From contig OZ252008.1 of assembly GCA_965246995.1 (NCBI GenBank), positions 947,986 to 1,011,985 on the forward strand: 64,000 nt of DNA. The letters are read 5' to 3'. This document shows, in pieces, positions 2,092 to 58,934 of the stretch; within the stretch, counting starts at the first letter, position 1; every line of letters starts with the position of its first letter. The DNA is from Vicinamibacterales bacterium. GTDB lineage: Bacteria > Acidobacteriota > Vicinamibacteria > Vicinamibacterales > UBA8438. Under the pieces are notes generated by a model. The model was not told where the DNA came from. It ran no database searches and was given only the letters and a program-made list of their open reading frames with translations. Position numbers and translations under genes: made by a program.

Positions 2092-3869
2092 AGTGGGTAC
2101 GCTCCTCGCTCGACCGCAGCGTCCGCCAGGCGGCGTCGGATCGCCACGGCATTGACCGGGATCACTTTCAGCAGCCGGCGGAGTACTGCGAGATGCGTCC
2201 GGAGCGTGTCGCCCTCCGCCATTGCCGCGAGCGCGGCCCGCGCCGTAACGTCAATCCGCAACGCGGCGTCGCTGACGTACACGGCCGCGGCATCCACCTG
2301 CCGGTCGGCGCCGGGCACGCCCTCCGCGGACGCGGCGCGCGCCCGCTGCACCACACTGTCGGCCGCGTAGGTGTCGATGATGATGTCGGCCGCGAGCGAC
2401 AGGATCTCCTGTTCGTCAGTCAGCTTGTTGCCATGCGTCTGGAGCGCCAGGCCGACGACCGCCAGCACCACCTTCCGGAACATGCCGACGGCGGCGTTCT
2501 GCGCTTCGAGCAAACCGTTGCCGGCCGGCGCTACGGGGGAGGGTGTCAGCAATTCGTCCTGCAGCTTCCGGGCCGCGTCGATCAGCGGCAAACCTCCCTT
2601 GAGCGCCCGTTTGACCAGCATGCCGGGGATCAGTAACCGGTTGATCTCGTTCGTCCCTTCGAAGATCCGGTTGACGCGCGAGTCGCGGTAGTGCCGCTCG
2701 GCGGGGTAGTCCCGGACGAAGCCGTTGCCGCCATGGATCTGCACGTTCTCGTCGAGAACGTAGTGCAGTGCCTCGCTGCCGGCCACTTTCAGGATCGATG
2801 ATTCAACCGCGTACTCCTCAAGGGTCCGCAGTAGCGCCCCGGTGTCTTCCGCGTCCGCCTCGGCGAGAGCGGCGTCAATCAAGCCGGCGGTCCGAAAGAC
2901 CATCGACTCGATCGCGTACGTCCTGGCGGTCATCTCGCCCAACTTGTGCTTGATAGCGCCGAAGTTGGCGATTGGCTGGCCGAACTGCTGACGGCTGGCC
3001 GCGTAGCGGGCCGCCTCGCCGACAGCCGATGTCGCGCTGCCGACGGTGGAGGCTCCCAGCTTGAACCGGCCGTAGTTGAGCACGTTGAAGGCGACGCGGT
3101 GGCCCTTGCCCACCTCGCCGAGCAGGTTTTCAGCCGGTACGCGGACGTCCTGCAACACGACCGCGGTCGTCGATGAGCCGTGGAGGCCCATCTTGTGCTC
3201 TTCCTTGCCGCTCGCGACGCCGTCGAATCCCCGCTCGACGATGAACGCGGTGAACTGCTCGCCGTTCACCTTCGCGAACACGATGTAGAGATCGGCGAAG
3301 CCGCCGTTCGTGATCCACATCTTCTCGCCGTTCAGTACGAAGCTGCCGTCCGCCTGCTCGGTCGCGCGTGCGCGGGCGCCGAGCGCGTCGGAGCCGGAGC
3401 CGGTTTCACTCAGGCAATAGGCGCCGACCAGTTCGCCTGACACCAGTTGCGGCAGGTAGCGCTGCTTCTGGTCCTCGGTGCCGAACATCAGGATCGGCAG
3501 GATGGCGAGCCCGGTGTGTGCGCCGATGGTGGAGCTGAACGAACCGCACCGGCCGACCGATCCGCCGATGATTGCCGAACTCACTTTGTCGAGTTCGAGG
3601 CCGCCGTACGCCTCCGGCACGTCGGTCCCGAGCAGCCCCAGCTCGCCTGCCTGCCGGAGCAACTGGCGGGCGAGATCCCAGTCCTTGGACTCGAGCCGAT
3701 CGTTTTGGGCCAACGTCTCGTCCGCGAACTGATCGGCGGTCTGGCGGAGGAGCCGATGTTCCTCCGTCATCCGTTCCGGCGTGACAATGGCATTGGGGTC
3801 CGTCTCGGCGAGCAGCCACTCGCCACCCCGTGCCGCGTGTTCCGTTGCCGTCATCGTTGCCGTTGCCAT
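2088..3869 (-). CDS. acyl-CoA dehydrogenase (long, ~590 aa type)
   Basis: 593-aa ORF. ACAD motifs are present: AYCLSETGSGSDA and QIHGGNGFVRDYPAERHYRDSRVNRIFEGTNEI. A C-terminal extension follows, as in FadE-type enzymes. Confidence 0.9.
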   Translation of the reverse strand: MATATMTATEHAARGGEWLLAETDPNAIVTPERMTEEHRLLRQTADQFADETLAQNDRLESKDWDLARQLLRQAGELGLLGTDVPEAYGGLELDKVSSAIIGGSVGRCGSFSSTIGAHTGLAILPILMFGTEDQKQRYLPQLVSGELVGAYCLSETGSGSDALGARARATEQADGSFVLNGEKMWITNGGFADLYIVFAKVNGEQFTAFIVERGFDGVASGKEEHKMGLHGSSTTAVVLQDVRVPAENLLGEVGKGHRVAFNVLNYGRFKLGASTVGSATSAVGEAARYAASRQQFGQPIANFGAIKHKLGEMTARTYAIESMVFRTAGLIDAALAEADAEDTGALLRTLEEYAVESSILKVAGSEALHYVLDENVQIHGGNGFVRDYPAERHYRDSRVNRIFEGTNEINRLLIPGMLVKRALKGGLPLIDAARKLQDELLTPSPVAPAGNGLLEAQNAAVGMFRKVVLAVVGLALQTHGNKLTDEQEILSLAADIIIDTYAADSVVQRARAASAEGVPGADRQVDAAAVYVSDAALRIDVTARAALAAMAEGDTLRTHLAVLRRLLKVIPVNAVAIRRRLADAAVERGAYPL

Positions 3870-3902
3870 CGTCGTCTCCCTGCCCTTCGGTGGCGGCCGG
3901 TT

Positions 3903-5093
3903 TCAGAGCCGCTCGAAGATGCCGGCTGCGCCCATGCCGCCGCCGACGCACATCGTCACCATGCCGTAGCGCCCGTTCCGCCTCTCCAGCTCGTGCAGCA
4001 GCGTCGCGGTCAGCTTTGCGCCCGTGCAGCCGAGGGGATGGCCCAGCGCGATTGCGCCGCCGTTGACGTTCAAGCGATCCGGATCAATCGGGAACTCGCG
4101 GAGGCAGGCGAGTACCTGAGCCGCGAACGCCTCGTTCAGTTCCACCAAGTCGATATCGTCGATGGTGAGGTTCGCGAGACGCAGCGCCTTCTGCATCGCC
4201 GGGACCGGCCCGAGACCGAACAGTTCCGGCTTGACACCGGCGGTGGCGTAGGTGACGAACCGTGCGAGCGGCTTCAGCCCGAGCCTCGCAGCATGTTCCG
4301 CCGTCGTCACGACCGCCGCCGCCGCGCCGTCGCTCGTTTGCGACGAGTTGCCGGCGGTTACCGAACCTCTTGCCTTGAAGACCGGCCGCAACGATCCCAG
4401 CGCTTCGAGCGACGTGTCAGCGCGCGGCCCTTCATCGGTGGTGATGACGACCTCGCGGATAGCAGGGCCATTGCCCCCACCGTTCCCGTTTGCCGATTCG
4501 GCACGCTGCACGGTAACCGAGACGATCTCGTCCTCGAAGCGCCCCGAGTCAATGGCGGCGAGCGCGCGCTGATGGCTCCGGAGCGCGAAGGCGTCCTGTT
4601 CCTCTCGTGTGATGCGCGACTCGCGTGCGTGGTTCTCCGCCACCAGGCCGGTGCTGAGATAGACGTCGGGGTAGTGCTCCACCAGCGCCGGGTTAGGCAC
4701 GAATTTGTGGCCCACCATCGGGACCAGGCTCATCGATTCCGTGCCCCCGGCCACAATCGTCTCTGCCGTGCCGGCCAGAATCCGTTCTGCCGCGAAAGCA
4801 ATGGACTGCAACCCGGACGAGCAGAAACGGTTGATCGTGACGGCGGATGCCTCGACCGGGATGCCGGCGCGCAGGCTGGCGATCCGCGCGACGTTCATCC
4901 CCTGTTCCGCCTCGGGCATCGCGCAACCCAGGATTACGTCCTCCACCTTGGCGGGATCCATGTCGCCGGCGCGTTCAAGCGCCGCGCGGATCGCGGTGGC
5001 GGCCAGTTCATCCGGCCGCGTGTTGCGGAACGATCCCTTCGGCGCCTTGGTGGCGGGGGTCCGGACCGCGGAAGCGATGACTGCCTCTCTCAT
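3903..5093 (-). CDS. fadA: acetyl-CoA C-acyltransferase (thiolase)
   Basis: ORF 3903..5207 trimmed to ATG 5093 ([17 protein letters not shown]). Thiolase signatures are present: [25 protein letters not shown] and [11 protein letters not shown]. Confidence 0.9.
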
Positions 5094-52055: not shown

Positions 52056-53432
52056 ATGCGAGAAGCGATGCCGGACCGGCGGCGGTTTCTGGTAACCGCA
52101 GGCGCGTTCCTGGGAGCGGCGCCGTTTCATGCGCTGGCATGCCGCGTCGCCGAGACCGGCGGCGCGCTGGCACCGAACGAATCGGTCGCTTCCGATGTCG
52201 GCTACGGGCCGCTCGGTCCGGTCGTTGACGGGACGACCGGCCTGCCACTGCTCCTTCTCCCGCCCGGCTTCCGCTACGTCACGTTTGGCTGGACCGGCGA
52301 CCCACTTGCGGACGGTCTCGCAACCCCCCCGGCGCATGACGGGATGGCCGCATTTCCGATCGCCAACGGCTTGGTCCGCCTCGTGCGCAACCATGAAATG
52401 CGAGAGGGTCTGCCTTTCGCATCCCGTCCCTTGTACGACCCGGGCGGGGGTGGCGGCACGACGACACTCGACTTCGATCCGTCCGCCGGCGCCCTGGTGA
52501 ACGCGCATGCCAGCCTGACCGGCACCGCGGTCAACTGCGCAGGTGGCCCGACGCCGTGGCAGTCGTGGCTCACCTGCGAGGAAACCGTGCTCGGTCCGGG
52601 GGAAGGCCCGGGCTACGAGTTACCCCACGGCTACATCTTCGAGGTGCCGGCGGACGGGGCCACCGCAGCATCCGCCGAGCCGTACCGTGCAATGGGACGC
52701 TTCGTCCACGAAGCAGTCGCGTTCGATCCGGCGACCGGCATCGCTTACGAGACGGAAGATCGGTCAGCGTCCGGGCTTTACCGCTTCCTTCCGGATCAGC
52801 CGGGCCAGCTCCAGGCGGGGGGACGTCTCGAGATGTTGGCGATCGACGGCGCCCCGGCGTACGACACCCGCACCGGTCAGACCGTCGGCGCGTGGCAGCC
52901 GGTCACCTGGTCGCCAATTGCCGATCCCGATCCCGAAGACATCGCGACCGACAGCGTCTACCGGCAGGGTCTCGCGGGCGGCGGCGCCACGTTCGCGCGA
53001 CTCGAGGGAATCTGGTACGGCGACGGCCGCATCTACATCGTCTCGACCACCGGCGGTGATCAGGAAGCGGGTCAGGTGTGGGAGTACGACCCCAGCGGCG
53101 AGCGGATCCGGCTCCTCTTCGAATCGCCCGGTGTCGAGGTGCTCGACATGCCCGACAACCTGACCGTCAGCCCACGCGGCGGTCTGGCACTTTGCGAGGA
53201 TGGGGAGACGGACGACCATGTCCGCGGCCTGACGCTCGACGGTGAGATCTTCCCGTTCGCGAAGAACAACGTGGTGCTCGACGGCGAGCGGAACGGGATC
53301 GCCGGCGACTTCCGGCACAGCGAGTTCGCCGGTGTGGTCTACAGCCCGGCCGGCGACTGGCTCTTCGTCAACGTGCAGACCCCCGGGATCACGTTCGCGA
53401 TTACCGGGCCCTGGGGCGACGGCCCCCTCTAG
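52056..53432 (+). CDS. PhoX/DUF839-family secreted protein (Tat signal)
   Basis: 458 aa with the twin-arginine motif DRRRFLVTAGAF. Blocks are DGMAAFP, VRNHE, GGGTTTL and NCAGGPTPW. Confidence 0.75.
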   Translation: MREAMPDRRRFLVTAGAFLGAAPFHALACRVAETGGALAPNESVASDVGYGPLGPVVDGTTGLPLLLLPPGFRYVTFGWTGDPLADGLATPPAHDGMAAFPIANGLVRLVRNHEMREGLPFASRPLYDPGGGGGTTTLDFDPSAGALVNAHASLTGTAVNCAGGPTPWQSWLTCEETVLGPGEGPGYELPHGYIFEVPADGATAASAEPYRAMGRFVHEAVAFDPATGIAYETEDRSASGLYRFLPDQPGQLQAGGRLEMLAIDGAPAYDTRTGQTVGAWQPVTWSPIADPDPEDIATDSVYRQGLAGGGATFARLEGIWYGDGRIYIVSTTGGDQEAGQVWEYDPSGERIRLLFESPGVEVLDMPDNLTVSPRGGLALCEDGETDDHVRGLTLDGEIFPFAKNNVVLDGERNGIAGDFRHSEFAGVVYSPAGDWLFVNVQTPGITFAITGPWGDGPL

Positions 53433-53475
53433 TTCCCGTCCGTGGCGCGCTGACGGAGGGCGGAACCCTCGCAGT

Positions 53476-54603
53476 ATGCTCGGTGGCGTGATCCGTCTCG
53501 TTACAGCACTACTCGTCGTCTGTCTGCTGCCTGTCGCGTCAGTAACCGGTCATCCCCTCAGCTTCACGGAGGTGACGCTGACGCTGCAGCCGGACGGAAC
53601 GTTCGCGGCGGAACTGATCTACGACCTGGACGCGCTGGCCCTCGGCGCACCGATCGGGACCGACGACGCGGAACTGGCGGCCGCACTCGCCAGCCTCCCG
53701 GCAGACGCATTCGAGCAGCGCGTCGACCGGCTGCGGCGGTTGTTCGAGCGGCGCGTCCGGGTTCGGTTCGATGGCGATCCCGCGCCGTTCGACGTGGCGT
53801 TCCCCGACTACGGCACACCCCGCGCCATCGAGTCGGAGATTCCCACGGTGCTCGGCCTGACGGCACGCCTGACCGGCCGCATCCCGCAAGGAGCAACCGA
53901 CGTCGGCTTCTTCGCATCGCGCGCGTTCGGCGAAGTGCATCTGACGGTGGTGGACAGCGCGCGCGACGTCGAAGTCCGCTCCATCCTCGAAGCGGGCGCG
54001 CGAAGCGATCCGCTGGACCTGACGGCGCCGGTCGAGCCGCCGACACGGGCCGAGGTGGCGGGACGCTATGGCCGGTTCGGCTTCATCCACATCGTGCCGG
54101 AGGGCGCCGACCACATCCTCTTTGTCCTCGGACTCTGCCTGTTGAGCCCGCGGCTGCGGCCGCTCGTCTGGCAGGTAACGGCATTCACCGCAGCGCACGC
54201 AGTAACGCTAACGCTCGCGACGTTCGATGTCGTGACCCTGTCGCCCCGCGTGGTGGAGCCGGTCATCGCGCTGTCGGTAGCTTACGTCGCGATCGAGAAC
54301 GTGTTGACCGATCGTCTGACCGGTTGGCGACCGGCCGTCGTGTTCGGCTTCGGGCTGCTGCACGGCCTCGGCTTCGCGGGCGTGCTCGGCGAGCTGGGGC
54401 TCCCGGAGGAAGAACGGCTGCTGGCGCTGCTGTCCTTCAACGCGGGAATCGAAGCGGGACAGCTCGTCGTGATCGGCGCGGCGGCACTCGCCGTCGGATG
54501 GTGGCGGACGAGAGCGTGGTACCGGCGGCGGGTGACGGTGCCGGCGTCGGCGGCGATCGCGGTAGTCGGAATTGTCTGGGCCGTCGAGCGCGCGCTCGGT
54601 TGA
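53476..54603 (+). CDS. HupE/UreJ-family membrane protein with ~190-aa N-terminal periplasmic extension
   Basis: ORF 53242..54603 trimmed to ATG 53476 (signal peptide MLGGVIRLVTALLVVCLLPVA). The C-terminal HupE core is HIVPEGADHILFVLGL...FTAAHAVTL...FGLLHGLGFAG...NAGIEAGQL. Confidence 0.75.
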   Translation: MLGGVIRLVTALLVVCLLPVASVTGHPLSFTEVTLTLQPDGTFAAELIYDLDALALGAPIGTDDAELAAALASLPADAFEQRVDRLRRLFERRVRVRFDGDPAPFDVAFPDYGTPRAIESEIPTVLGLTARLTGRIPQGATDVGFFASRAFGEVHLTVVDSARDVEVRSILEAGARSDPLDLTAPVEPPTRAEVAGRYGRFGFIHIVPEGADHILFVLGLCLLSPRLRPLVWQVTAFTAAHAVTLTLATFDVVTLSPRVVEPVIALSVAYVAIENVLTDRLTGWRPAVVFGFGLLHGLGFAGVLGELGLPEEERLLALLSFNAGIEAGQLVVIGAAALAVGWWRTRAWYRRRVTVPASAAIAVVGIVWAVERALG

Positions 54604-54613
54604 GCGCGACGGG

Positions 54614-54934
54614 TCAGGCGGAGGGTTCGCTCTCGGTGCGACGCGCGATCAGGCGGCCGACCGTCTTCAGCTTGCTCCAGAAGAAATCGAACTGGCCGAG
54701 CAGCGTGCCGTACCCCAGCAGCAATAATTGATAGATCGGCAGCATTATCACCAGGTAGATGAGCCAGCCGAGCCAGCCGGGCGCATCCGCCGGGAGCAGC
54801 CATGCCATCACCGGCCCCTTCAGTCGAACCGTCGTAAGGCCGGCCAGCGAGAACGCGGTCAGAATGGCGACGATGCCGATGGGGCCGACACCCCAGCGGG
54901 GCTTCATCCATTGAACCAGTCCGGGTCGCGTCAT
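54614..54934 (-). CDS. small membrane protein (DUF6787-like, from memory)
   Basis: About 106 aa with 3 TM segments. The tail is LPIYQLLLLGYGTLLGQFDFFWSKLK. The start is ATG 54934 (TTG 54937 is possible). Confidence 0.6.
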   Translation of the reverse strand: MTRPGLVQWMKPRWGVGPIGIVAILTAFSLAGLTTVRLKGPVMAWLLPADAPGWLGWLIYLVIMLPIYQLLLLGYGTLLGQFDFFWSKLKTVGRLIARRTESEPSA

Positions 54935-55128
54935 CAATCTACCGTTACGAAGCGTTCGAGGCCGGCCACTTCATCCTCGTCCACGTACTTGCCGATCTCG
55001 CGGCGGAACTGCGCTCCGGAAAAGCAACCGCAACGCGTCGCGGCGGATGGTATCAGACCGCCCTGACGTCAGCACCCGGATATGTGCGTAGCGTCGCAGA
55101 CCGGGTACTGTGCGCTATCTGGATCCAC
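54934..55128 (-). other. candidate 64-codon Cys-rich ORF interrupted by one in-frame TGA
   Basis: It runs from GTG 55128 to TGA 54936-54934. The translation is MDPDSAQYPVCDATHISGC-TGA-RQGGLIPSAATRCGCFSGAQFRREIGKYVDEDEVAGLERFVTVD. The terminal TGA overlaps the ATG of the next gene (TGATG). It is invisible to a 60-aa ORF filter. Confidence 0.3.
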
Positions 55129-55215
55129 GTCCGGCAGGCGGAAGAAGCGGCAGGCTGCGTGCTAGAATTCCCGCTTGGCGCTTGCCGCGAACTCCAATCG
55201 AGTGAGGTATTGGCA

Positions 55216-57438
55216 ATGATCAGGGTGACTTTTTCCGGGCCGGTCCGCTCTACCGTTCTGGCGTCGTGCCTCGTCGTAGCGGGACTCCTCCTGCCGGCGG
55301 CTGGCGCGGAGGCGCAGGACTGGCCCAGTTGGCGTGGTCGGGCGCAGACCGGCGTCTCCGATCTGACCGGATTGCCGTCGAGCTGGTCACTGGAGGGCGA
55401 GAACTTCGTCTGGTTCCAGCCCTACATCGCGCGGTCGACGCCGGCCGTTTTTGACGGTCGAGTCTGCGCAAATGGCCGGACCGGTGACAATGTCGCGAAG
55501 AAGGAGATCGTCACCTGCTGGGATGCCGAAGGTGGCACGCAGCTCTGGCAGCACACCTTCAACGTTCTGAACACCACCGTCCCGTTCAACCGGGTCGGCT
55601 GGGGGAGCGTGACCGGCGATCCGGAGACCGGCTATCTCTACGCGTTAAACGTGGACGGGCACCTGCACGCCTTCGACCGTGACGGCGAAATCGTCTGGAG
55701 TCGGCGGCTGCACGAAGACCTGGGCCGAGCCTCCGGGTACGGCGGACGCACGTCGACCCCGATCATCGATGAGGACCGGCTGATTCTCGGCGTAATCGGC
55801 TCGATCTGGGGCAATCTTGGCGGGCCGCCCCGCCATCGCTACGTCGCTTTCAACAAGGCGAACGGCAACATCGAATGGATCGCAACGCCGGGCGGCCAGC
55901 CGGCGGACCTCAACACCCAGTCGGTGCCGATCGTCGCCGTGGTGAACGGCCAGCGGCTGATCATCGACGGCAACGCCGACGGCCACATCTACGCGCTGCA
56001 GGCCCGGACTGGCAGGAAAGTCTGGGAGTTCCGCCTGAGCCAGCGCGGCATCAACGTCTCCCCGGTGATCGACGGCACCACCGTCTACGTCGCCCACAGC
56101 GAAGAGAACATCGATCAGGGCACGATGGGGCGCCTCGTCGCACTGGATGCCACTCGCGAAGGCGACATCACGGAAACGGGTGAAGTCTGGCGGATAGACG
56201 AAATGGCGGTCGGCTTCTCGTCGCCGCTGATCCATGACGGTCGCCTCTACGTGATCGACAACTCGGCCAACCTCTATGCGATCGACGCGTCGAACGGGTC
56301 GGTGCTGTGGGAGGAGAGCGTCGGCACGGTCGGCAAGTCGTCGCCCGTCTGGGCCGACGGCAAGCTGTACATCACCGAGGTCAACGGCAACGTCCACATC
56401 CTGCAACCGGGGGCTGACGGCGTGGAGTTCCTCGACAGCGACGAACTGGAGGTCGAAGACGGCCGCTACGCCGAGATATACGGCTCGTTCGCTCCGGCCT
56501 ACGGGCGGCTCTACGTGACGGCGGAATCGGGGGTTTACTCCATCGGCGATCCCGCCGCGCCGTTCGACGCTACGCCCGGCGAAACGCCGGCGCTCGGCAA
56601 CGAATCGGCGGCCGCCGATACGGTGGCGAGCATACAGGTGCATCCCGCCGAGGTCGTCGCCTCGGCCGGCGAGACGCTCCGCTTCCGCGTCGAGGCGTTC
56701 GACGCGAACGGACAGTCGCTCGGCGCCCGGGACGCTACCTGGTCGCTCGAGGACCTGGCCGGGTCGCGCCTGCGCGTCAACGGAGAGTTCCAATCCCCGC
56801 CCGACTCGACCAATCAGGCAGGCCGGGTGATCGCCAGGGTCGGAAACGTCTCGGCCGCGGCCCGCGTCCGCATCTTTACGCAACTTCCCTGGGCGGAGAA
56901 CTTCGAGAACGGACGGCCGGGCCATTGGATCGGCGGCGGCGGCAGCCTGGCCGCGGTGGACGAGGGGGGCGAGCAGCTCTTCCGCAAGGGTCCATCGCGG
57001 ACCGGCATCCACCGGCACGCCATCTACATCGGTCCGTCCCACCTGTCCAACTACACCGTGCAAGCCGACGCGATGTCGACGCAGAAGGGGCGGCGACGAC
57101 CCGACATCGGCCTGATCAACAGCGGCTACACGATGGACCTGCAGGGCAACCACCAGCGGATCGAGGTCCGCTCGTGGGCGGCGGAACTGCGAATGGCGGA
57201 GCGGTTCGACTTCGCCTGGGAGCCGGACGTCTGGTACACGTTGAAGCTGCGCGTCGACACCGATGAGAATCGCGCGCTGATCCGCGGGAAGGTTTGGCGG
57301 CGCGGCGATCCGGAGCCGGAGGTCTGGACGGTGACCGTGGAGGATCCCGAACCGGTTCAAGACGGCAGTCCCGGCCTGATCGGCTACTCGCCGATCGACA
57401 TCTACTATGACAATGTGCGCGTGATGGAGAACCAATGA
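55216..57438 (+). CDS. secreted PQQ-like beta-propeller repeat protein with C-terminal lectin/glucanase-like domain
   Basis: ORF 55084..57438 trimmed to ATG 55216 (signal peptide). It has the N-terminal DWPSWRG and repeated propeller blades (YALNVDGHLHAFD, IYALQARTGRKVWEF, LYAIDASNGSVLWE). A C-terminal domain of about 200 aa ends in YYDNVRV. Confidence 0.8.
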   Translation: MIRVTFSGPVRSTVLASCLVVAGLLLPAAGAEAQDWPSWRGRAQTGVSDLTGLPSSWSLEGENFVWFQPYIARSTPAVFDGRVCANGRTGDNVAKKEIVTCWDAEGGTQLWQHTFNVLNTTVPFNRVGWGSVTGDPETGYLYALNVDGHLHAFDRDGEIVWSRRLHEDLGRASGYGGRTSTPIIDEDRLILGVIGSIWGNLGGPPRHRYVAFNKANGNIEWIATPGGQPADLNTQSVPIVAVVNGQRLIIDGNADGHIYALQARTGRKVWEFRLSQRGINVSPVIDGTTVYVAHSEENIDQGTMGRLVALDATREGDITETGEVWRIDEMAVGFSSPLIHDGRLYVIDNSANLYAIDASNGSVLWEESVGTVGKSSPVWADGKLYITEVNGNVHILQPGADGVEFLDSDELEVEDGRYAEIYGSFAPAYGRLYVTAESGVYSIGDPAAPFDATPGETPALGNESAAADTVASIQVHPAEVVASAGETLRFRVEAFDANGQSLGARDATWSLEDLAGSRLRVNGEFQSPPDSTNQAGRVIARVGNVSAAARVRIFTQLPWAENFENGRPGHWIGGGGSLAAVDEGGEQLFRKGPSRTGIHRHAIYIGPSHLSNYTVQADAMSTQKGRRRPDIGLINSGYTMDLQGNHQRIEVRSWAAELRMAERFDFAWEPDVWYTLKLRVDTDENRALIRGKVWRRGDPEPEVWTVTVEDPEPVQDGSPGLIGYSPIDIYYDNVRVMENQ

Positions 57439-58934
57439 CTCGACTGTCCCCGATCACCGGAATTCGCTTCGCTGCCCCGGGCGCCGCGCGTCTGGCCGTC
57501 GCCGGCCTGTTCGCGCTGACCGCCCTGGCCGCACCGGCCGCACCGGCCGCCGCGCAGGAGACCGCCATGTTCGGCAACACGCCCGAACGCAACATGGTGT
57601 CGGACGAAACCGGCGTGGTCTCCGAGTGGGATGCCTCAACCGGGCGAAACGTTCTCTGGTCGCAGCCAGTCGGATCACAGGCCTACGGCGGACCGGTGGT
57701 GGCGAACGGCCGTGTCTATGTCGGCACGAACAACGAGGGGCGTCGCGACCCGGCGATCGACGGCGACAAGGGCGTCGTCATGGCGTTCGAAGCCACTGGC
57801 GGCGATTTCCTGTGGCAGATGGTCCATCCCAAGCTATCGTCCGGCCGCGTGAACGATTGGCCGCTGCAGGGCATCTGCTCCACCGCGTTCATGGAAGGCG
57901 ACCGGATCTGGTACGTCTCGAACGAGGCGCACATCGTCTGCCTCGACGCGAAGGGCCTTGCCGACGGCAACGAGGGTCCGTTCATGGACGAGGAGCAGAC
58001 CGGCGGCCAGAATGGCGACATTATCTGGTCGTACGACATGATCGGCGAGCTCGACGTCTTCCCGCACAACCTCGCCACCGGCTCCCCCCTCATCGTCGGT
58101 GACGTCCTGTTCACGGTAACCAGCAACGGCGTCGACGAGGGCCACGTCAACATTCCGTCCCCCTTCTCGCCCGCCTTCATCGCCCTCGACAAGAACACGG
58201 GCGAACTGCTTTGGGAATCGAACCCGGTGGGCGAAGAGGTCCTGCACGGCGCCTGGACGAACCCGACGTACGGGGTCGTCGACGGACGGGCTCAGGTGAT
58301 CTTCCCGGGCGGTAACGGCGTCATCTACAGCCTCGACCCGGAGACGGGCGACCTGCTCTGGGAATTCGACTGCAACCCGAAGGACTCCGAGTGGATCCTT
58401 GGGGGACGGGGTACGCGCAACAACATCCTTTCGACGCCGGTGGTGTACGACAACAAGGTGTACATCGGCGTCGGCCAGGACCCGGAGCATGGCGAGGCGC
58501 CGGGCCACCTCTGGGTGATCGACGCGACCGGCAGGGGTGACGTGACCGACACGCACGTCGTCTGGCACCGGGGAGGCGAAGACTTCTACCGGACGATGTC
58601 GACCGCCGCGATCGCCGACGGCGTCCTCTACATCTCGAGCCTCTCCGGCTTCCTGCACGCCCTCGACGCGCAGACCGGCGAGGAGTTCTGGACCTACGAC
58701 ACGTTCGCGGCGGTCTGGGGCTCCCCGTTCGTCGCCGACGGCAAGGTGTTCCTGGGCGACGAGGATGGCGACGTCGCGGTCCTGCGCGCGGGACGCGAAC
58801 TCGAGCTCCTGGGAGAGTACAACCTCGGGGCCGCCGTCTACTGCACCCCGGTAGTCCGCGACGGCGTCCTCTACGTCCTCACCCGGAACCGCATCTGGGC
58901 CTTCCAGGAAGGCGCCCAGGGCGACCCGCTCTGA
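57435..58934 (+). CDS. secreted PQQ-like beta-propeller repeat protein
   Basis: 499 aa with an ATGA overlap with the preceding gene. It has a signal peptide and propeller blades (VMAFEATGGDFLWQ, IALDKNTGELLWE, IYSLDPETGDLLWEF, LHALDAQTGEEFW). Confidence 0.8.
   Translation: MTRLSPITGIRFAAPGAARLAVAGLFALTALAAPAAPAAAQETAMFGNTPERNMVSDETGVVSEWDASTGRNVLWSQPVGSQAYGGPVVANGRVYVGTNNEGRRDPAIDGDKGVVMAFEATGGDFLWQMVHPKLSSGRVNDWPLQGICSTAFMEGDRIWYVSNEAHIVCLDAKGLADGNEGPFMDEEQTGGQNGDIIWSYDMIGELDVFPHNLATGSPLIVGDVLFTVTSNGVDEGHVNIPSPFSPAFIALDKNTGELLWESNPVGEEVLHGAWTNPTYGVVDGRAQVIFPGGNGVIYSLDPETGDLLWEFDCNPKDSEWILGGRGTRNNILSTPVVYDNKVYIGVGQDPEHGEAPGHLWVIDATGRGDVTDTHVVWHRGGEDFYRTMSTAAIADGVLYISSLSGFLHALDAQTGEEFWTYDTFAAVWGSPFVADGKVFLGDEDGDVAVLRAGRELELLGEYNLGAAVYCTPVVRDGVLYVLTRNRIWAFQEGAQGDPL

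Follow-up and report, generated by a model that had tools for sequence, protein, structure and literature searches.

The 278-bp spacer that separates a DUF6787 gene (54614..54934, minus strand) from a divergent PQQ-repeat beta-propeller gene (55216..57438, plus strand) raises the question of whether it contains a hidden selenoprotein gene, a gene that was recently inactivated, or no gene of its own. The spacer is located in a stretch of 64 kb from a Vicinamibacterales bacterium (64,000 nucleotides, hereafter the window). The DUF6787 gene is intact (Pfam PF20584, E 6e-22), and the PQQ gene, whose product carries a signal peptide (Pfam PQQ_2, E 1.9e-29), was used as synteny anchor for the comparison with related genomes. 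A first-pass annotation, made from the letters of the window, had proposed that the spacer holds a small Cys-rich selenoprotein gene or a fresh pseudogene. The comparisons below lead to another reading, in which the frame is an artefact of gene decay, and their main value is this negative result: one false selenoprotein candidate is removed.

The 64-codon frame and its chance expectation

Read on the minus strand from GTG 55128, the spacer translates as VDPDSAQYPVCDATHISGC*RQGGLIPSAATRCGCFSGAQFRREIGKYVDEDEVAGLERFVTVD*, the asterisks marking TGA stops. This frame (55128-54934) comprises 64 codons with one internal stop, the TGA 55071-55069, which is preceded by a Cys codon and was the proposed selenocysteine (Sec) codon. 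The terminal TGA (54936-54934) and the ATG of the DUF6787 ORF (54934-54932) share bases as TGATG. On the 3' side of the internal TGA, GGCGG (55062-55058) can pair with CCGCC (55046-42) to form a 5-bp hairpin that begins 8 nt after the stop. All these literal elements, i.e. the GTG, the internal TGA, the TGATG junction and the pairable arms, proved correct on re-reading. We also agree that no Shine-Dalgarno sequence is present ahead of GTG 55128, a codon that is moreover not conserved, since it is aligned with GCG in the related locus L008.

The GC content of the window is 67.4%, and at such a value frames with no more than one stop are commonplace. Among the 64-codon windows taken in all six frames of the window, 72% contain at most one stop and 44% contain none. 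When the spacer is shuffled, 99.9% of the shuffles yield a run of 64 codons or more that contains no more than one stop, and the plus-strand frame antisense to the candidate is fully open over the whole spacer. As an ORF, the 64-codon frame is within chance expectation. Its composition is not of the coding type over the whole length, with a GC3 of 0.66 (0.68 in each half), whereas the values for seven genuine genes of this stretch are 0.79-0.88. The Pfam and NCBIfam scans recovered no family, either for the candidate with the TGA replaced by Cys or for the open antisense frame.

SECIS-like structures are over-predicted as GC content increases (PMC12013277). The arms of the hairpin do pair, but its reading as a SECIS stem-loop placed directly after the UGA does not hold: the hairpin region folds at -18.1 kcal/mol versus a shuffle mean of -17.7 (z = -0.14), 84 of the 200 shuffles being equally or more stable, and the search of the spacer against Rfam gave zero matches, even at E up to 10. 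The sequence of the hairpin is conserved in a non-coding context, in three related loci (L008, L002 and L001) that have no UGA-containing ORF at this place. From the comparisons presented in the next section, the above-chance signal of the frame is limited to its last 26 codons and their stop (55014-54934).

Homologues of the frame and the three-gene cassette

The candidate, with the TGA replaced by Cys, was used as query against 5.8 billion proteins. The 34 matches recovered are all HhH-repeat proteins or fragments of such proteins (best E values from 3e-13 to 5e-9), and true similarity is confined in every case to residues 39-64. A few alignments are longer (up to 64% of the query, the longest being obtained with P0001), by a gapped and almost identity-free extension over residues 24-38. 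Where the homologues display ...HEFEEYRPYxxM, the window has ...TRCGCFSG. By the accepted criterion, a new bacterial selenoprotein must have conserved Sec/Cys homologues with conserved flanks (PMC12013277). Here, no Cys or Sec residue is aligned with the in-frame UGA and the coding flanks are not conserved; the homologue with Cys at this position that a selenoprotein would lead one to expect was not among the matches.

With the PQQ protein as query, the scan of species-representative genomes gave 34 loci. The nearest ones are from MAGs of Vicinamibacterales (Acidobacteriota), whose PQQ proteins are 78-87% identical to that of the window (85-87% for the closest); the exact PQQ protein, looked up in the contig index, had no match. 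When the candidate was compared by tblastn with the 34 syntenic loci, residues 39-64 matched at 88-92% in L002 and L008, immediately upstream of the DUF6787 genes, and residues 1-38 were without any match. In L008, residues 39-64 of the candidate correspond to the C-terminus (residues 226-251) of a 251-aa ORF (2650..3405, minus strand; 92% identity, E 1e-8), and the C-terminus found in L002 is 88% identical. According to its sequence, the 251-aa ORF of L008 starts with a lipoprotein-type signal sequence. It contains the repeat unit ...LN.AS.EEIL.(V/I)PGVG.RM.HEF.EYRPY...AQFRREIGKYVD..EVARLE.(F/Y)V and is recognized by the HHH_3 / HHH, ComEA-like models of Pfam (E 2.6e-15). This HhH family is large, with at least 7,990 database matches at E up to 1e-3. 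Further upstream, L008 displays a 155-aa membrane-protein ORF (3374..3841, minus strand), for which Pfam gave no family.

The same three genes are found elsewhere. L035 contains an intact cassette (164 aa, 234 aa with HhH repeats, and DUF6787), bordered by two PQQ genes on one side and by HupE_UreJ_2 and PhoX genes on the other, a gene order that is the same as the neighbourhood of the window. The loci L036-38 carry the three cassette genes in another genomic context, and there the stop of the HhH gene overlaps the start of the DUF6787 gene. In L008, whose cassette is intact, the stop/start junction is TGATG, identical to that of the window and of L002. The cassette is located at 2330-3841 (minus strand) in L008, at 2510-4171 (plus strand) in L035 and at 2497-3950 (plus strand) in L036, with a DUF6787 protein of about 100 aa, and the three genes occur together in no fewer than two distinct genomic settings. 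On the basis of these alignments, the predicted ancestral cassette (minus strand) is composed of a membrane protein of about 155-165 aa, an HhH-repeat lipoprotein of 213-251 aa and DUF6787. The record of this conserved three-gene cassette, a widespread putative module in Vicinamibacterales and other bacteria, is a minor positive outcome of the analysis. The literature search found no paper naming DUF6787.

Concerning the HhH family, the public 40-aa "proteins" P0014, P0015 and P0019, as well as the region 3001-3123 of L039, consist only of the last HhH half-repeat (MAHEFEEYRPY..QFRREIGKYVDEDEVARLERYV..). At least one of these 40-aa gene calls lies inside an 18-kb contig without an adjacent DUF6787 gene. 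Such calls may be further relics of the HhH family annotated as genes.

The deletion junction and the alternative readings

The comparison with L008 divides the candidate into segments of different origin. The segment 55073-55011 of the window (minus strand) is colinear with L008, L002 and L001, and its L008 counterpart (about 3912-3852, within an alignment covering 3820-3935, minus strand) stops 14 nt short of the ATG of the membrane-protein ORF 3374..3841. This segment is homologous to the non-coding DNA (promoter or 5' leader) ahead of the first cassette gene. On the other side, the segment 55014-54900 matches L008 over the 3' end of its HhH gene and the first part of its DUF6787 gene. The HhH homology starts exactly at 55014, upstream of which the window follows the leader just described. 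The two segments are about 1.1 kb apart in L008, and their alignments in the window overlap by the tetranucleotide GCGC (55014-55011). This microhomology is flanked by …CCGGAGCGC|GCGG… in the ancestral leader and by …ATCGCGC|AGTTCCGG… in the HhH gene; in L008, the sequences at the breakpoint are ...ACCGGAGCGC|GCGGCGGCCCATG for the leader and ...GACATCGCGC|AGTTCCGGCGC for the HhH gene. About 1.1 kb is therefore absent from the window, corresponding to the entire membrane-protein gene and to the HhH gene except for 26 codons. These codons, delimited by tblastn and codon alignment, read AQFRREIGKYVDEDEVAGLERFVTVD and are followed by the stop TGA 54936-54934 (54934..55014, minus strand). Elsewhere in the 64 kb, neither the HhH gene nor the membrane-protein gene was found.

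Upstream of the leader homologue, a segment of about 51 nt (55124-55074, minus strand) cannot be aligned and is an insertion specific to the window relative to L008, L002 and L001. It supplies nearly all of the 5' half of the candidate. Its comparison by blastn-short with the window and 84 loci gave only chance matches of 11-12 nt. A tandem duplication of the promoter segment followed by divergence was considered as the origin of this segment (55128-55075) and rejected, the self-alignment score being reached by 101 of 500 shuffles. All four Cys codons of the candidate fall in the part derived from non-coding DNA. The proposed Sec codon also lies in ancestrally non-coding DNA, and its position is occupied by TGG in L008, CGT in L002 and GTT in L001. 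No frame is preserved at this place, because indels (4 nt in L008 and 1 nt in L001) are located between the position of the TGA and the conserved motif downstream; conservation of the frame in the homologous regions, a point on which the selenoprotein proposal depended, is absent.

What these comparisons establish at the level of sequence is the homology and synteny, the place of the junction, and that residues 1-38 lack any homologue. The 278-bp spacer is, very probably, a scar left by the loss of about 1.1 kb, and the 64-codon frame a chimera. The ancestor would have possessed the three-gene cassette on the minus strand, in which the HhH gene ended and DUF6787 began within a shared TGATG. 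The deleted DNA would have run from one GCGC, some 14 nt ahead of the start codon of the membrane-protein gene, to another in the last HhH repeat. Its loss would have taken the whole first gene and the second gene bar its last 26 codons, and would have fused the leader of the cassette to the HhH tail. The frames of the leader and of the tail would be continuous by accident and, together with the window-specific stretch of 51 nt, would give the 64-codon frame with one stop.

The intact cassette is the ancestral state, because L002 carries an independent and smaller deletion with remnants of both genes. No locus is closer to L008 than L002, the two DUF6787 genes being 93% identical in nucleotides. 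What the deletion of L002 has spared is about 20 codons from the beginning of the membrane-protein gene (MPSQRDSAVVRR...), a stretch that reads WVELILL, and about 50 codons from the end of the HhH gene. In L001 the leader is joined straight into the N-terminal region of DUF6787, and L048 contains an HhH remnant with a frameshift. Weak HhH traces are present in L043/44 and L007, the trace of L043/44 ending 67 nt upstream of the DUF6787 match, and no HhH trace was detected in L003-L006. The sites of decay are located at 54934-55073 in the window, 3648-3850 in L002, 3840-3900 in L001, 1554-1760 in L048, 2340-2450 in L043 and 586-691 in L007. Breakpoints or frameshifts thus differ in at least four lineages, and DUF6787 is intact throughout. 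The first two cassette genes have apparently been lost repeatedly and independently. Since the partners were lost and DUF6787 was kept, this pattern suggests that DUF6787 is able to function without them.

Two points weigh against the deletion scar. A second assembly with the same junction was sought in metagenomes and not found (0 matches to the exact junction TTCCGGAGCGCAGTTCCGNCGNGARATCGGNAARTAYGT, so that no independent assembly confirms it), and a misassembly is formally possible. In addition, the differences between the relic and L008 are mostly at the third codon position (1, 1 and 7 differences at positions 1, 2 and 3, i.e. seven of nine), which fits continued translation too. The same bias would, however, be just as likely with a deletion that is young compared with the divergence of the lineages. 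Since the differences are mostly at third positions, most of the divergence would have arisen while the gene was intact, and the deletion would be fairly recent. When the changes are polarised with L035 and L036, those specific to the window include a replacement of Arg by Gly (CGC to GGC) in EVARLE. This position is occupied by Arg in 219 of the 221 instances of the family motif and by Gly in none, and the replacement suggests relaxed constraint on the relic.

Compared with the ComEA-family proteins (HHH_3, PF12836), the relic matches the end of the repeat, QFRREIGKYVDxxEVARLExYV, at up to 92%. Contrary to these proteins, it represents only about 10% of the length, without start, signal peptide or any complete HhH unit, and has Gly in place of the near-invariant Arg. 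Its similarity to the family is partial, intact syntenic orthologues exist in L008 and L035, the start, signal and domains are lost and the breakpoint is located. The 26 codons are a truncated relic of an HHH_3/ComEA-like lipoprotein gene and not a member gene. The case resembles the known microhomology-flanked deletions and pseudogene decay, in that sites about 1.1 kb apart in a relative are joined at a 4-nt repeat (GCGC) and in that a short coding relic with one radical substitution is accompanied by independent decay in sister lineages. It is in no way unusual among them, and a 4-nt match in DNA of 67% GC may be a coincidence. A deletion in GC-rich DNA accounts for the 64-codon ORF as well as for its Sec codon and SECIS, all of them artefacts of ordinary gene decay. 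In GC-rich genomes, a deletion that joins a leader to a coding relic can imitate a "hidden ORF" with a coupling junction and a SECIS-like hairpin.

Beyond the deletion itself, the HhH tail could have been kept for a role in cis on DUF6787, as an untranslated leader with a ribosome-loading region or as a uORF of 16 codons (GTG 54984...TGA 54934). HhH-derived sequence beside the start of DUF6787 survives several independent decays (window, L002 and L048), GTG 54984, the first ATG, GTG or TTG of the 3' half, is in frame, and the nucleotide identity of the relic to its relatives (85-89%) is above that of DUF6787 (80-81%). Nevertheless, the strong constraint on the motif in the once intact gene accounts for this high identity, L001 and L003-L006 keep DUF6787 without the HhH tail, and the HhH and DUF6787 genes of L035 are 155 nt apart. 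The deletion of L001 removes the TGATG start too, and the downstream ATG 54907 (MKPRWG) may be the functional start. A role in cis is therefore unlikely; if it were true, a co-option of the tail after the deletion, with ribosomes delivered through TGATG, could explain why HhH sequence is retained beside DUF6787.

That an intact 64-aa Cys-rich gene was recently killed by a nonsense mutation is more doubtful still, and we consider it highly improbable. The designation "fresh pseudogene" is right insofar as the 3' end (26 codons) is a genuine coding relic whose differences are mostly synonymous, but the 64-codon ORF as such was never a gene hit by a nonsense mutation. The relic is the tail of a protein of 213-251 aa and not of 64 aa, the 5' part, with its four Cys codons, aligns to a non-coding leader in three relatives, and none of the relatives offers, where the window has the TGA, a sense codon within a conserved frame. 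An uninterrupted ORF of about 64 codons with such a composition upstream of DUF6787 was found in none of the 84 loci. It had also been noted that the 3' half has no ATG, GTG or TTG before GTG 54984, which is correct, and that it needs the 5' half, an argument that fails because the 3' half once belonged to the protein of 213-251 aa. Likewise, the TGATG junction is real, but it was inherited from the ancestral HhH-DUF6787 pair, of which the upstream partner has disappeared from the window.

In bacterial selenoprotein genes of the type of E. coli fdhF, the in-frame UGA is followed immediately by a SECIS stem-loop. The candidate is like these genes by its TGA after a Cys codon and by its small GC-rich hairpin a few nucleotides downstream, but differs from them by the absence of a Sec/Cys homologue pair, by unconserved coding flanks and by a hairpin at chance level; the tRNA search of the 64-kb window detected one tRNA (Glu-CTC) and no tRNA-Sec. 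A real selenoprotein of 64 residues, with UGA 55071-55069 read as Sec by means of the hairpin and coupled to DUF6787 through a TGATG junction kept in L002 and L008, can be set aside with near certainty, given residues 1-38 without homologue, a TGA, Cys codon and hairpin that all lie in the non-coding DNA upstream of the cassette in relatives, with frame-breaking indels, a GC3 that is not gene-like, and an unconserved GTG without Shine-Dalgarno sequence.

The surviving DUF6787 gene and its neighbourhood

DUF6787 is the only cassette gene that survives in the window. Its protein is 81% identical to that of L008, and the nucleotide differences between the two genes number 18, 6 and 39 at codon positions 1, 2 and 3, respectively. 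This distribution indicates that the gene is under purifying selection, and it looks functional. The candidate starts are TTG 54937, ATG 54934 and ATG 54907. The first two are absent from L001; the DUF6787 match starts at residue 10 or 11 (MK.RWGVG) in L003, L004, L007 and several metagenome loci; and the Pfam DUF6787 match starts at residue 25. The true start may be ATG 54934 or ATG 54907, these three observations favouring or allowing the latter.

The loop of the hairpin corresponds to an extended -10-like motif, TGATACCAT (55055-55047, minus strand), included in the conserved block GGYCTGATACSATC. Its counterpart is TGATACGAT in L008, L002 and L001, and the equivalent place in L035 is occupied by TTGACC-19 nt-TAGTAT. 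Scanned with the sigma-70 consensus, the region 54850-55300 gave no promoter, the reason at TGATACCAT being the lack of a -35 match. It is plausible, in view of this conservation, that TGATACCAT is the ancestral promoter of the cassette, now driving DUF6787. Transcription would begin near 55040, with DUF6787 as first gene, and the mRNA leader would be composed of about 30 nt of the old leader and of the 78-nt HhH tail, untranslated. The internal TGA and the 5' half of the candidate would lie outside this minus-strand mRNA.

A terminator-like hairpin, GCCGCGACGCGTTGCGGT followed by TGCTTTTCC, is present at 55044-55027 (minus strand), with one occurrence found versus 0.2 expected in shuffles. 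Its stem is kept in L008 and L002. It was set aside as a meaningful terminator because it is included in the conserved leader, and it may represent a structural element at the 5' end of the cassette mRNA.

On the downstream side of DUF6787, the genes of a PhoX-family phosphatase and of a HupE/UreJ_2 membrane protein occupy 52056-54603 (plus strand). On the other side, two tandem PQQ-repeat beta-propeller genes (55216-58934, plus strand), divergent from DUF6787, overlap by their stop and start at 57435-57438. This PhoX / HupE / PQQ-PQQ arrangement is syntenic across the Vicinamibacterales MAGs. Next to the first PQQ gene, the block 55125..55215 (plus strand), at the edge of which the GTG 55128 of the candidate is located, is near-invariant in the window, L008, L002, L001 and L035. 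It contains TGcTAGAAT (55160-55168, plus strand), which resembles an extended -10 element and precedes the PQQ ATG 55216 by about 47 nt; lacking a -35 match, it is missed by the consensus scan. Judging from its conservation and position, this block probably serves the plus-strand PQQ gene or operon as promoter and 5' UTR.
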